Of a stretch of DNA of 32,000 nucleotides, positions 28,822 to 30,305 are shown piece by piece. The notes below the pieces were generated by a model that was not told the origin of the DNA, did not search any database, and saw nothing but the letters and a program-made list of their open reading frames with translations. The translations under genes were made by a program, and so were the position numbers. Origin of the DNA: Candidatus Helarchaeota ASGARD archaeon Hel_GB_B (GTDB lineage Archaea > Asgardarchaeota > Lokiarchaeia > Helarchaeales > HEL-GB-B); contig SUPR01000033.1 in assembly GCA_005191425.1 (NCBI GenBank), positions 1,857 through 33,856 of the forward strand. Direction: 5' to 3'. Numbering within the stretch: position 1 is the first letter of the stretch; each line of letters starts with the position of its first letter.

Positions 28822-29121
28822 GGACACTACTATAAATAGATGTAAAGAATGTAAGTCAGAAAATTAATTAGGATCGTTTCAAACCAAAATTCAATAAATT
28901 CAGACCTTTTAGCCAAAAAATTAAGTTGAAACTTAGAAACATAAAAGATAATTAATATGATAATTTAGAAGATAACGTTATATTTTTTCATTTACGATTT
29001 TTATAGTTTCAAGCCAAATGTCATTATAAAATAAATTTAATAAAAAATATTGACCATCTTCTTTATATACGCTAATAAATAAATAAATTTTAAAATGACG
29101 AATCCTATAATTTTAGTAGAA

Positions 29122-29441
29122 TGATAGGTACTTTCCTTCATAGAGGGCACCTTGATTAAAAGATGATAGCGTGTGCAAATGAGGGAATACACTTGACAGA
29201 TACCACACTAATGTTCCGTATTGGATAGCGCCCTTACATGAGATGGATGTGTCATCCGACGATGAATGAGGTTTAATTGTCTCACATTAAACCTGAAAAT
29301 TAAGTCAACCCCTTTATGGTACAGTGTGGTATATGGGTATTGGTAATATGCCATCCACGAGAGGAACTTTAGCGATTTTGGATATTTCCGTAAATGAGCT
29401 ATTGAGTTAGTGTTTGATGGCAACAACCAATTACCCTCTTT
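29122..29441 (+). ncRNA. Candidate structured non-coding RNA of unrecognised class (about 320 nt)
   Basis: GC island (127 G+C in 320 nt versus 21 in the 120 nt at 28981-29100). Many helices, with G-U pairs mostly favouring the + strand. TATA-like TTTTAAAA at 29088-29095 upstream and TCTTTT at the 3' end. No convincing protein. Confidence 0.72.
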
Positions 29442-30305
29442 TCAGTATACATTAATGTCGAGACAGACATGAAAAGTATGTGGTTTATAGGACTTGATTT
29501 TTTCTAAATGTGCCAATTCGATTGTGCGATTATTTTTAACAGCAACATTTTCAACATCAGATAATAATGTTTCAGGAGAGTTATTATCGAGTAAAATACC
29601 TTCATAATGAATAACACATGGGCCTTTTTTTAATACTTTAAAAGCAGTATCTAAGCTGGATTTAGGACTAGGTAAAATTCCCATAATGATTCTATCGGCG
29701 TGTTCGGGAATTTCTAGTGCTTTAATTCTGCAGTCGCCAAAAATGGGTATTACTTTGTCCTTAGGAATTTTATTTAGTTTTAAATTTTCGATTAAATATT
29801 TATAAGAAGTTGGGTTTATCTCAAAAGCGTATATTCTCGATGCTTTTGAAAATTTCGCGATACCTAAAGTAAAGTACCCAATGCCAGCATAGAAATCAAA
29901 AATTATTTCTCTATTTTTTATCAATGGAATGTATCTACGTCTTTCATTTATATTTCCTTTAGCAAACATAATTTTCAATACATCGAACTTGTATTTAATG
30001 CCATTTTCAATTACAATAGTTTCTGTATCGCTACCTGCTAGCAATTCCAATTGAGGTTCCCGGAATTCGCCATAAATAGCTCCTTTTTTTAAACATACAG
30101 TACTGCAATTTTTAACAATTTTTAAAATTGCTTCTGCAATGATTTTTTTCTTGTCTAAAAGTTCATTTCTTAAATTTAAAATTACTACATGCCCAACTTG
30201 TTGATAACCCCTAGGTAAATATTGTTTTTCATCTTCATTTATTGAATTACCCAATGTATCTGCCAAGATCTTTCTAAAATTACCCCGCAATTTATTCTGC
30301 ACCAT
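29442..30305 (-). CDS. taw2: Trm5/TYW2-family tRNA G37 modification enzyme, most like Taw2/TYW2 (4-demethylwyosine aminocarboxypropyltransferase)
   Basis: LPRGYQQVGHVVIL, ENGIKYKFD...MFAKGNINERRR, DFYAGIGYF, EINP...NLKLN, ADRIIMG, IHYE. MF-x-x-GN-x-x-ER and IHY are TYW2-type rather than Trm5b-type. Confidence 0.82.
   Translation of the reverse strand: MVQNKLRGNFRKILADTLGNSINEDEKQYLPRGYQQVGHVVILNLRNELLDKKKIIAEAILKIVKNCSTVCLKKGAIYGEFREPQLELLAGSDTETIVIENGIKYKFDVLKIMFAKGNINERRRYIPLIKNREIIFDFYAGIGYFTLGIAKFSKASRIYAFEINPTSYKYLIENLKLNKIPKDKVIPIFGDCRIKALEIPEHADRIIMGILPSPKSSLDTAFKVLKKGPCVIHYEGILLDNNSPETLLSDVENVAVKNNRTIELAHLEKIKSYKPHTFHVCLDINVY

Follow-up and report, generated by a model that had tools for sequence, protein, structure and literature searches.

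A three-motif box H/ACA RNA next to the TYW2 gene of a Helarchaeales archaeon: a probable divergent Asgard ortholog of HgcG/Pab40

What kind of RNA is encoded by the non-coding island at positions 29122-29441 of a 32,000-nucleotide (nt) stretch of Candidatus Helarchaeota archaeon Hel_GB_B DNA (contig SUPR01000033.1, positions 1,857 to 33,856; this whole stretch is called the window below)? The initial annotation, made from the sequence alone, regarded it as a structured RNA of an undescribed or very divergent class. Our analysis leads to another answer, to which we assign a probability of about 85%: the island encodes a divergent Asgard (Helarchaeales-type) ortholog of the box H/ACA small RNA (sRNA) HgcG/Pf7/Pab40/Afu-4. 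HgcG, Pab40 and Pf7 are names of one and the same known three-motif H/ACA sRNA (PMC2377435; PMC4652768).

A direct count gave 127 G+C among the 320 bases of the island (39.7%; G 71, C 56), exactly as initially annotated, while the upstream spacer has only ~17% G+C. Open reading frames (ORFs) within the island had no Pfam match, and its 3' end coincides with the stop of a convergent gene for the TYW2/Taw2 methyltransferase (29442-30305, minus strand; PF02475 and PF25133). Folding energies are -94.3 kcal/mol for the plus strand (z = -4.3 versus shuffles) and -81.1 kcal/mol for the minus strand (z = -3.1). The Rfam search that had been proposed for this locus was carried out with Rfam 15 and yielded nothing for the window at gathering score and nothing for positions 28950-29600 at E<=10. 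The host assembly, a 3.5-Mb Asgard metagenome-assembled genome, carries a normal archaeal RNase P RNA (RNaseP_arch, 164 bits) and a normal signal recognition particle (SRP) RNA (Archaea_SRP, 99.5 bits), each on another contig, and this agrees with the earlier view that the island is neither of the two. The element occurs there in one copy. A mobile element or repeat was rejected for this reason.

The RNA is well conserved. In another genome of the same genus (G001), a 75% identical copy adjoins its own TYW2 gene; conservation between the two sequences begins at 29121 and stops at the U-tract. RNAalifold, applied to their alignment, gave 75 pairs, and compensatory double changes were seen in 11 of these. 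A covariance model built from the same two sequences (R1) was run on 151 genomes of the class, and in 52 of them it found exactly one full-length match (290-325 nt). RNase P RNA and SRP RNA, both encoded elsewhere in the host genome and not matched by R1, were discarded as candidates. None of 18 R1 homolog loci was matched by Rfam at gathering score. From the best-sampled family (f4), 36 homologs were aligned by MAFFT and a 78-pair structure was drawn by hand; 88.8% of the alignment cells were paired, versus 30-45% with slid partners, compensatory changes occurred in 40 of the 78 pairs, and none of 500 shuffles reached the observed values. A second model (R2), built from this alignment only, detected one full-length copy in 24 of the 25 f4 genomes and in 62 of 151 genomes phylum-wide, representing at least 13 families; the window scores 80 bits with it. 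The R1/R2 matches in the window span 29109/29117 to 29448/29450. In a 42-sequence phylum alignment, which was fitted to the model and so leans towards the structure, 70 of 77 pairs showed compensatory changes, while the slid controls were ~40% paired. The conservation and covariation check proposed earlier thus gave a strong result, and the structure can be regarded as established.

Archaeal box H/ACA sRNAs are recognized by a hairpin followed by an ANA box, a kink-turn (K-turn) or kink-loop (K-loop), a spacing of 14-15 nt and one to three such motifs per RNA (PMC2377435). The window RNA contains three hairpin-ANA units with a K-loop or K-turns, which is the archaeal box H/ACA signature (Table 1). 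Each lower stem is followed by ACA within 0-1 nt, and the upper part of each hairpin holds, by its sequence pattern, a K-loop (motif 1) or a K-turn (motifs 2 and 3). The distance from the ANA box to the top of the pocket is 14, 16 and 14 nt in motifs 1, 2 and 3, respectively, that of motif 2 being one above the archaeal 14-15 nt rule. Against the usual lower-stem length of at least 7 base pairs (bp), motifs 1 and 3 have 7 bp each; for motif 2 the count is 5 bp, rising to at most 9 bp if two U.U pairs are included. Among the 42 homologs, an ANA triplet is found in 42 sequences at box 1 (ACA 34, AUA 4, AAA 4) and in 41 at both box 2 and box 3; there is almost no variation in the outer A's, whereas the central position is sometimes U or A. 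The GA dinucleotides of the motif 1 K-loop are kept in 38/42 and 39/42 homologs, the motif 2 K-turn strand GCRAUGA is conserved, and so are the pocket strands of motif 3 (GAGAG in 31/42, UUAGUG in 36/42). The host genome encodes Cbf5 (TIGR00425, 441.6 bits), Nop10 (PF04135, 61.9 bits) and Gar1 (PF04410, 32.6 bits), all above the cut-offs.

Two of the hairpins are enclosed, together with their ANA boxes, by additional closing helices: AUACCACAC / GUGUGGUAU (29200-08 / 29324-32) around motif 2 and GGGUAUUGGU / ACCAAUUACCC (29335-44 / 29426-36) around motif 3. Phylum-wide, compensatory changes were found in 6/6 pairs of the former (helix 7) and 5/5 pairs of the latter (helix 14). The 29200/29323 helix, initially described as one arm of a pseudoknot, therefore does covary, in the role of a closing helix. 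The hairpins at 29244-58 and 29269-94 and the 3' rod in its full length, with the tandem G.A pairs (29374-75 with 29396-97), were likewise correctly recognized at the outset, as compensatory changes are seen in them in comparison with G001 and in the phylum alignment. The 5' end carries, in most lineages, a box-C-like RUGAUGR, which forms a further K-turn with a GA motif just past motif 1. Its canonical (C) and non-canonical (NC) stems (helices 2 and 3) showed compensatory changes in 3/4 and 1/2 pairs in f4 and in 4/4 and 2/2 pairs phylum-wide; in the window the C-stem, by hand pairing, is weak or absent, and this K-turn is less certain there. A terminal box C/D or U3-like RNA, considered because of this 5' motif and a 3' CUGA present in some homologs, was rejected: the 5' motif pairs with the GA past motif 1 and the 3' CUGA is not conserved.

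Table 1. Features of the H/ACA RNA locus (positions are those of the window).
Feature	Position	Strand	Basis or remark
TATA-like box TTTTAAAA	29088-29095	+	sequence; ~26 nt ahead of first conserved RNA base
Whole RNA, ~320 nt, three-motif box H/ACA sRNA	29121-29441	+	R1/R2 matches; conservation in G001
5' leader AUGAUAGG, box-C-like K-turn strand	29121-29131	+	partner CUUGA 29192-29196; compensatory changes in relatives
H/ACA motif 1	29133-29187	+	compensatory pairs (G001, f4, phylum)
Motif 1 lower stem, 7 bp	29133-39 / 29181-87	+	
Motif 1 5' guide AUAGAGG	29140-46	+	
Motif 1 upper stem, 6 bp and one bulge	29147-52 / 29168-74	+	
Motif 1 K-loop (UGA...GAU; U.U and tandem G.A)	29153-67	+	
Motif 1 3' guide GCAAAU	29175-80	+	
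ANA box 1, ACA	29189-29191	+	14 nt past first 3'-guide base
Closing helix of motif 2, 5' strand	29200-29208	+	pairs with 29324-29332; 3 compensatory pairs versus G001
H/ACA motif 2	29216-29319	+	
Motif 2 lower stem (CCGUA / UAUGG), 5 bp	29216-20 / 29315-19	+	helix 8: 5/5 compensatory pairs, phylum alignment
Motif 2 5' pocket	29221-32	+	
Motif 2 upper stem, 7 bp interrupted by inserted hairpin	29233-39 / 29266-68 plus 29301-04	+	
Motif 2 K-turn (CAU-GA / GAU-GA-AUG)	GA 29240-41; GAUGA 29261-65	+	
Motif 2 tip hairpin	29242-60	+	
Genus-specific inserted hairpin, 9 bp	29269-94	+	compensatory changes versus G001
Motif 2 3' pocket	29305-14	+	
ANA box 2, ACA	29321-29323	+	16 nt past 3' pocket top
Closing helix of motif 2, 3' strand	29324-29332	+	as for 29200-29208
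Closing helix of motif 3, 5' strand	29335-29344	+	pairs with 29426-29436, one bulged U; 2 compensatory pairs versus G001
H/ACA motif 3	29349-29422	+	compensatory pairs (G001, f4, phylum)
Motif 3 lower stem, 7 bp	29349-55 / 29416-22	+	
Motif 3 5' pocket CACGAGAGG	29356-64	+	
Motif 3 upper stem, ~9 bp	29365-73 / 29398-29408	+	
Motif 3 K-turn (GC-GA / AAU-GA-GC)	GA 29374-75; AAUGA 29393-97	+	
Motif 3 tip	29376-92	+	
Motif 3 3' pocket AGUGUUU	29409-15	+	
ANA box 3, ACA	29423-29425	+	14 nt past 3' pocket top
Closing helix of motif 3, 3' strand	29426-29436	+	as for 29335-29344
U-tract	29437-29441	+	sequence; UCUUUU reaching 29442; abuts TYW2 stop codon

The link to a named family came from more distant homologs. 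Six such R2 loci were compared with Rfam at relaxed thresholds, and one of them (L121; R2 E = 4.7e-24) matched RF00064, i.e. HgcG (Pab40), an H/ACA-box type model of 276 positions with a gathering score of 77 bits. The match covers positions 1-276 of 276 with 29.2 bits and E = 9e-5 (2.6e-6 on the 551-nt stretch). When the 151 Asgard genomes were scanned with RF00064, single full-length sub-threshold matches were obtained in 13 of them, the best scoring 51.9 bits; the relatives that match RF00064 belong to other Asgard classes, and no match was found in f4 genomes. Conversely, R2, which had been built without any HgcG-detected locus, matches the loci L128, L130, L131 and L134 at E = 1e-18 to 1e-20, and in the genomes G152 and G247 both models match the same place. 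Because R2 and RF00064 share loci, the window RNA, the Lokiarchaeia RNAs, the HgcG-like Asgard RNAs and the Thermococcales HgcG form one family, of which the Rfam model reaches only the nearer part. The cmscan alignment also agrees in its details. In motif 1, HgcG GCGAGGA, the K-loop GAgCUuAAUGA, GUGCGA and ACA stand opposite CGAGG ... GUGCAA ... ANA; in motif 3, HgcG GUGUUA ... ACA stands opposite GAGUUAGUG ... ACA, with an insertion-rich motif 2 between them. The H/ACA anatomy and this model-to-model link together overturn the assignment to an undescribed or very divergent class.

If the RNA is a guide, which uridines would it address? There are no small subunit (SSU) or large subunit (LSU) ribosomal RNA (rRNA) genes in the host assembly, hence no target test in cis, and the LSU and SSU rRNAs of three relatives carrying the RNA (G003, G005 and G032) were used for the search. 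The motif 1 guide is strongly conserved (CGAGG in 41/42 and GCAA in 38/42 homologs) and pairs with UUGC-UU-CCUCGAU, directly 5' of the conserved CGAUGUCGG, a site that ranks first in the LSU rRNAs of all three relatives. Motif 1 most likely targets an LSU uridine beside the peptidyl-transferase centre, located two bases 5' of CCUCGAUGUCGG. This is the site that motif 1 of Pab40 serves, and we take it to correspond to about E. coli 2496 and yeast 2865. Pab40 motif 1 makes pseudouridine (Psi) 2588 of 23S rRNA in vitro and in vivo, at a position conserved in eukaryotes (PMC2377435). Since the guide core is shared with the HgcG consensus, the predicted Asgard site would be the equivalent of this Psi2588, and it is conservation and homology, not the pairing score, that support the assignment.

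The phylum-wide 5' strand of motif 2, AAUGGGC, is complementary to the A-loop sequence GCCCAUU, and CAG(C/U) to GCUG; among the candidate sites of the three LSU rRNAs, the A-loop site has ranks 1, 2 and 1. In the description of Muller et al. the structure of motif 2 is ambiguous, and a target in the A-loop region had been suggested for Afu-4 in earlier work (PMC2377435). The pocket of Pab40 motif 2 is large and variable (PMC2377435; PMC4652768), and motif 2 of the window fits this description. Pab40 motif 3 makes Psi2016 in helix 69 of 23S rRNA (PMC2377435); in the Asgard RNAs, UAGU and GAGAG of motif 3 can pair, over 9 bp and 14-15 nt from the ANA box, with ACUA-UAA-CUCUC of the helix 69 loop. 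In most Asgard lineages, then, the A-loop is the probable target region of motif 2 and helix 69, by homology with Pab40, that of motif 3, although both assignments are weak.

Other candidate targets were discarded. A motif 2 match on the SSU helix GGGUAA-UG-GCCCA is present in G003 and G005 and not in G032; an 18-bp match of motif 2 (G003 LSU U1795) and a 15-bp match of motif 3 (G005 LSU U2389) fall in variable regions and are not kept in the other genomes; and the 3' guide of motif 3 alone strongly matches GAGCACUAA-UU in the LSU rRNAs of G005 and G032, without 5' pairing. The motif 3 pocket ACGAGAGGA is identical in sense to the sarcin-ricin loop; a reading of it as a mimic of that loop, or as a loop E motif, was set aside. 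A scan of the whole host genome for targets returned AT-rich noise only, and nothing was found when the RNase P RNA, the SRP RNA and the 8 transfer RNAs (tRNAs) predicted by ARAGORN were searched. These 8 were the only tRNAs found by ARAGORN across the 3.5-Mb host genome, none of them in the window. A separate observation concerns the G003 LSU rRNA (L072, ~2095-2356), in which the helix 69 loop AGUAACUAUAACUCUCUU and the following AAGGUAGCC lie ~250 nt apart, while they are adjacent in G005 and G032; the 23S rRNA of G003 thus seems to hold an intron or insertion immediately past helix 69.

Several observations weigh against the HgcG/Pab40 assignment or against the proposed targets. RF00064 has no match in the window at E<=10 or in the host genome at E<=0.01, and none of its matches in the 151 Asgard genomes reaches the gathering score, because of which family membership rests on transitive model searches. 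The upper-stem rule of 5-6 bp, derived from Pyrococcus, agrees with motif 1 (6 bp and one bulge) and disagrees with motif 3 (~9 bp) and with motif 2 (an interrupted 7 bp); this misfit may reflect misplaced pocket borders, which were assigned by us. The raw pairing scores of motif 1 (10.5-12) are no higher than those of the best shuffled guides, and the per-genome target scores in general are no better than the best shuffled-guide score. Moreover, the window has AUAGAGG as the 5' guide of motif 1, the only C-to-A change among the 42 sequences, the other 41 having CGAGG; either such a mismatch is tolerated, or the 23S rRNA, missing from the assembly, has a matching change. The A-loop match of motif 2 needs a UNN gap at 17-19 nt from the ANA box, which breaks the Pyrococcus rules, and the corresponding strand reads AGCGCC in the window and AGGCCC in G001, neither of which is complementary to the A-loop, so in this genus that complementarity has been lost. 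Finally, the helix 69 match of motif 3 ranks only 5th-12th in the LSU rRNAs of the relatives.

These deviations could also be read in another way, namely that the RNA is derived from an H/ACA guide and in this genus no longer guides all three sites, motifs 1 and 2 being degenerate or retargeted, and that it acts mainly as an L7Ae- and Cbf5-bound chaperone or scaffold in ribosome assembly, similar to snR30. AGAGG in place of CGAGG, a change confined to the window, would fit such a loss, as would the 5' pocket of motif 2, which in the window and G001 departs from the consensus AAUGGGC and is accompanied by the extra inserted hairpin. The pocket strands of motif 3 vary less than simple guiding would require, and the search yielded no convincing target for them; the closing helices and the fourth K-turn suggest a compact architecture. 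We nevertheless consider this explanation unlikely. The window RNA keeps its lower stems, ANA boxes, K-turns and pocket geometry, which argues for continued assembly of the ribonucleoprotein (RNP), and guiding would not necessarily be lost through a single mismatch in a guide arm of 7 nt; G001 keeps UCGAGG. Retargeting, in turn, can be judged only against the organism's own rRNA sequence.

A new RNA class with a pseudoknotted 5' domain and a 3' rod, possibly of catalytic function, seemed attractive as long as only the lack of Rfam matches, in the window and in the 18 close homolog loci, and the unusually good conservation of a single-copy, phylum-wide RNA were taken into account. The pseudoknot, however, depended on a long-range helix, 29138-47/29310-19, and its extension, 29152-57/29303-08. 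Both are complementary in the window, but by hand pairing 3 of the 10 main pairs are lost in G001 and the extension is not complementary there; moreover, both overlap hairpin 1, which is conserved phylum-wide and in which RNAalifold places 29138-47. The helix is a chance complementarity, and the pseudoknot is not supported. Nor is the annotated hairpin at 29215-25, as CCGUA (29216-20) pairs with UAUGG (29315-19) instead. With three hairpin-ANA units, K-turns and the RF00064 link pointing to a known family, we find a new class very improbable. Less probable still, to the point of being negligible, is the other alternative raised initially, that the island is a structured 3' untranslated region (UTR) of taw2 read from the minus strand. 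It is true that the island abuts the taw2 stop codon, that the minus strand, too, folds below its shuffles and that G001 and G005 have the same taw2 neighbourhood. Yet the covariance matches in the window lie on the strand opposite taw2, the promoter box and the U-tract are on the plus strand, and G001 has 100 nt between the RNA and the taw2 stop; furthermore, no TYW2 gene adjoins the RNA in f4, and in one further Asgard class the two share a strand, with the RNA upstream.

The ends of the RNA suggest a transcription unit of its own. The TATA-like box and its spacing are kept in G001; in f4 homologs, which begin with a conserved GGGA, TTTATAA-like boxes precede this start by a similar distance. 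A U-run is found in the same place in G001 and many homologs, and the U-tract of the window is likely an archaeal terminator. From the box and the U-tract, both noticed in the initial annotation and now found in homologs, we infer that the RNA is transcribed independently from the plus strand. For an HgcG/Pab40 ortholog, the following course of events can be envisaged: the RNA would be transcribed from its own TATA promoter up to the U-tract, L7Ae would bind the K-loop or K-turn of each hairpin, and Cbf5-Nop10-Gar1 would bind the lower stem and the ANA box; the internal loop might then pair with rRNA on both sides of a uridine, which Cbf5 would convert to pseudouridine.

The resemblance to HgcG/Pf7/Pab40/Afu-4 of Thermococcales and Archaeoglobus extends to the three hairpin-ANA motifs in one RNA of ~280-320 nt, the motif 1 K-loop with the guides CGAGG / GC(G/A)A, the large variable pocket of motif 2, and the K-turn and GUUA-containing 3' strand of motif 3. 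The Asgard RNAs differ in their AT-rich stems (GC-rich in HgcG), in the motif 3 5' pocket GAGAG-AAC (GGUUA in HgcG) and in scoring at most 51.9 bits with RF00064, below its gathering score of 77 bits, with the window unmatched. They also have covarying closing helices at motifs 2 and 3 and a 5' K-turn helix at motif 1, while the HgcG consensus structure in Rfam, on which this comparison is based, contains neither the closing helices nor the K-turn helix. Other archaeal H/ACA sRNAs (Pab21, Pab35, Pab91, Pab105 and others) share the lower stem, the pocket, an upper stem with an L7Ae site, a distance of 14-15 nt between target U and ANA box, and the one to three motifs per RNA (PMC2377435). Their ANA boxes, however, lie in free linkers or at the 3' end, whereas those of the Asgard RNA are inside internal loops; and most archaeal H/ACA sRNAs are lineage-specific, whereas the Asgard RNA is single-copy and traceable phylum-wide and into Euryarchaeota. 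Eukaryotic H/ACA small nucleolar RNAs (snoRNAs) follow the same guide logic with the same enzyme family (Cbf5/dyskerin), but they have two hairpins, lack K-turns and have the sites spread over separate snoRNAs. In yeast, snR46 serves Psi2865, snR10 the A-loop and snR191/snR3 helix 69.

It is tempting to regard the Asgard form as a distinct architectural variant of an ancient three-motif H/ACA RNA, in which motifs 2 and 3 with their ANA boxes are held in covarying closing helices and motif 1 in a box-C/D-like K-turn helix, giving a compact particle with four L7Ae sites, whose three pockets would serve the universally important LSU sites next to the peptidyl-transferase centre, in the A-loop and in helix 69 that were later spread over separate eukaryotic snoRNAs. 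We put this forward tentatively and with more doubt than confidence. Were it true, no H/ACA guide known would be better conserved than this RNA, which could be followed from Euryarchaeota to those archaea that are most closely related to eukaryotes. For H/ACA RNP assembly, the helices that close around the ANA boxes are at any rate a small structural curiosity. According to Muller et al., the Psi2588 of Pab40 and the helix 69 pseudouridine are conserved in eukaryotic LSU rRNA, too (PMC2377435). As the sites predicted for the Asgard RNA are reported by these authors to be pseudouridylated in eukaryotic rRNA as well, this RNA connects rRNA modification in archaea and eukaryotes in a way that can be tested. 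At the level of annotation, a candidate new RNA class is replaced by a concrete entry, a single-copy Asgard HgcG/Pab40 ortholog missed by Rfam 15 in Lokiarchaeia and Helarchaeales, and our alignment and covariance model could extend RF00064 and improve the annotation of Asgard genomes.

Some observations concern the neighbourhood and copies of the RNA in other genomes. In a distant Asgard genome of another class (L128), pheT (52-1476), the RNA (1539-1829) and TYW2 (1878-2717) follow each other on the plus strand; possibly an rRNA-modification guide has long been linked with tRNA-related genes (pheT, TYW2). The gene adjoining the RNA in f4 (L053, 1813-2280, minus strand) resembles the Roadblock/LC7 type, but only weakly and with a score under the cut-off (PF08923, MAPKK1_Int, E = 1e-4). 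In one Lokiarchaeia genus (g7; loci L043, L044, L053, L063 and others) a conserved stretch, AUAACAUACC.AUAG.AUCAGAUCUAAAUAAUUCCUUCAUUU, lies ~10-60 nt 3' of the RNA and could be either a second small RNA or the terminal part of the neighbouring gene (in L053, an ORF starts at 1810 on the minus strand). Finally, a second, partial R2 match (G024:C17:42363-42476) lies ~470 nt from the full copy of that genome, and at G061:C18:8509-8802 the RNA copy is divided into two adjacent R1 matches; these two cases are possibly partial duplications or insertions.

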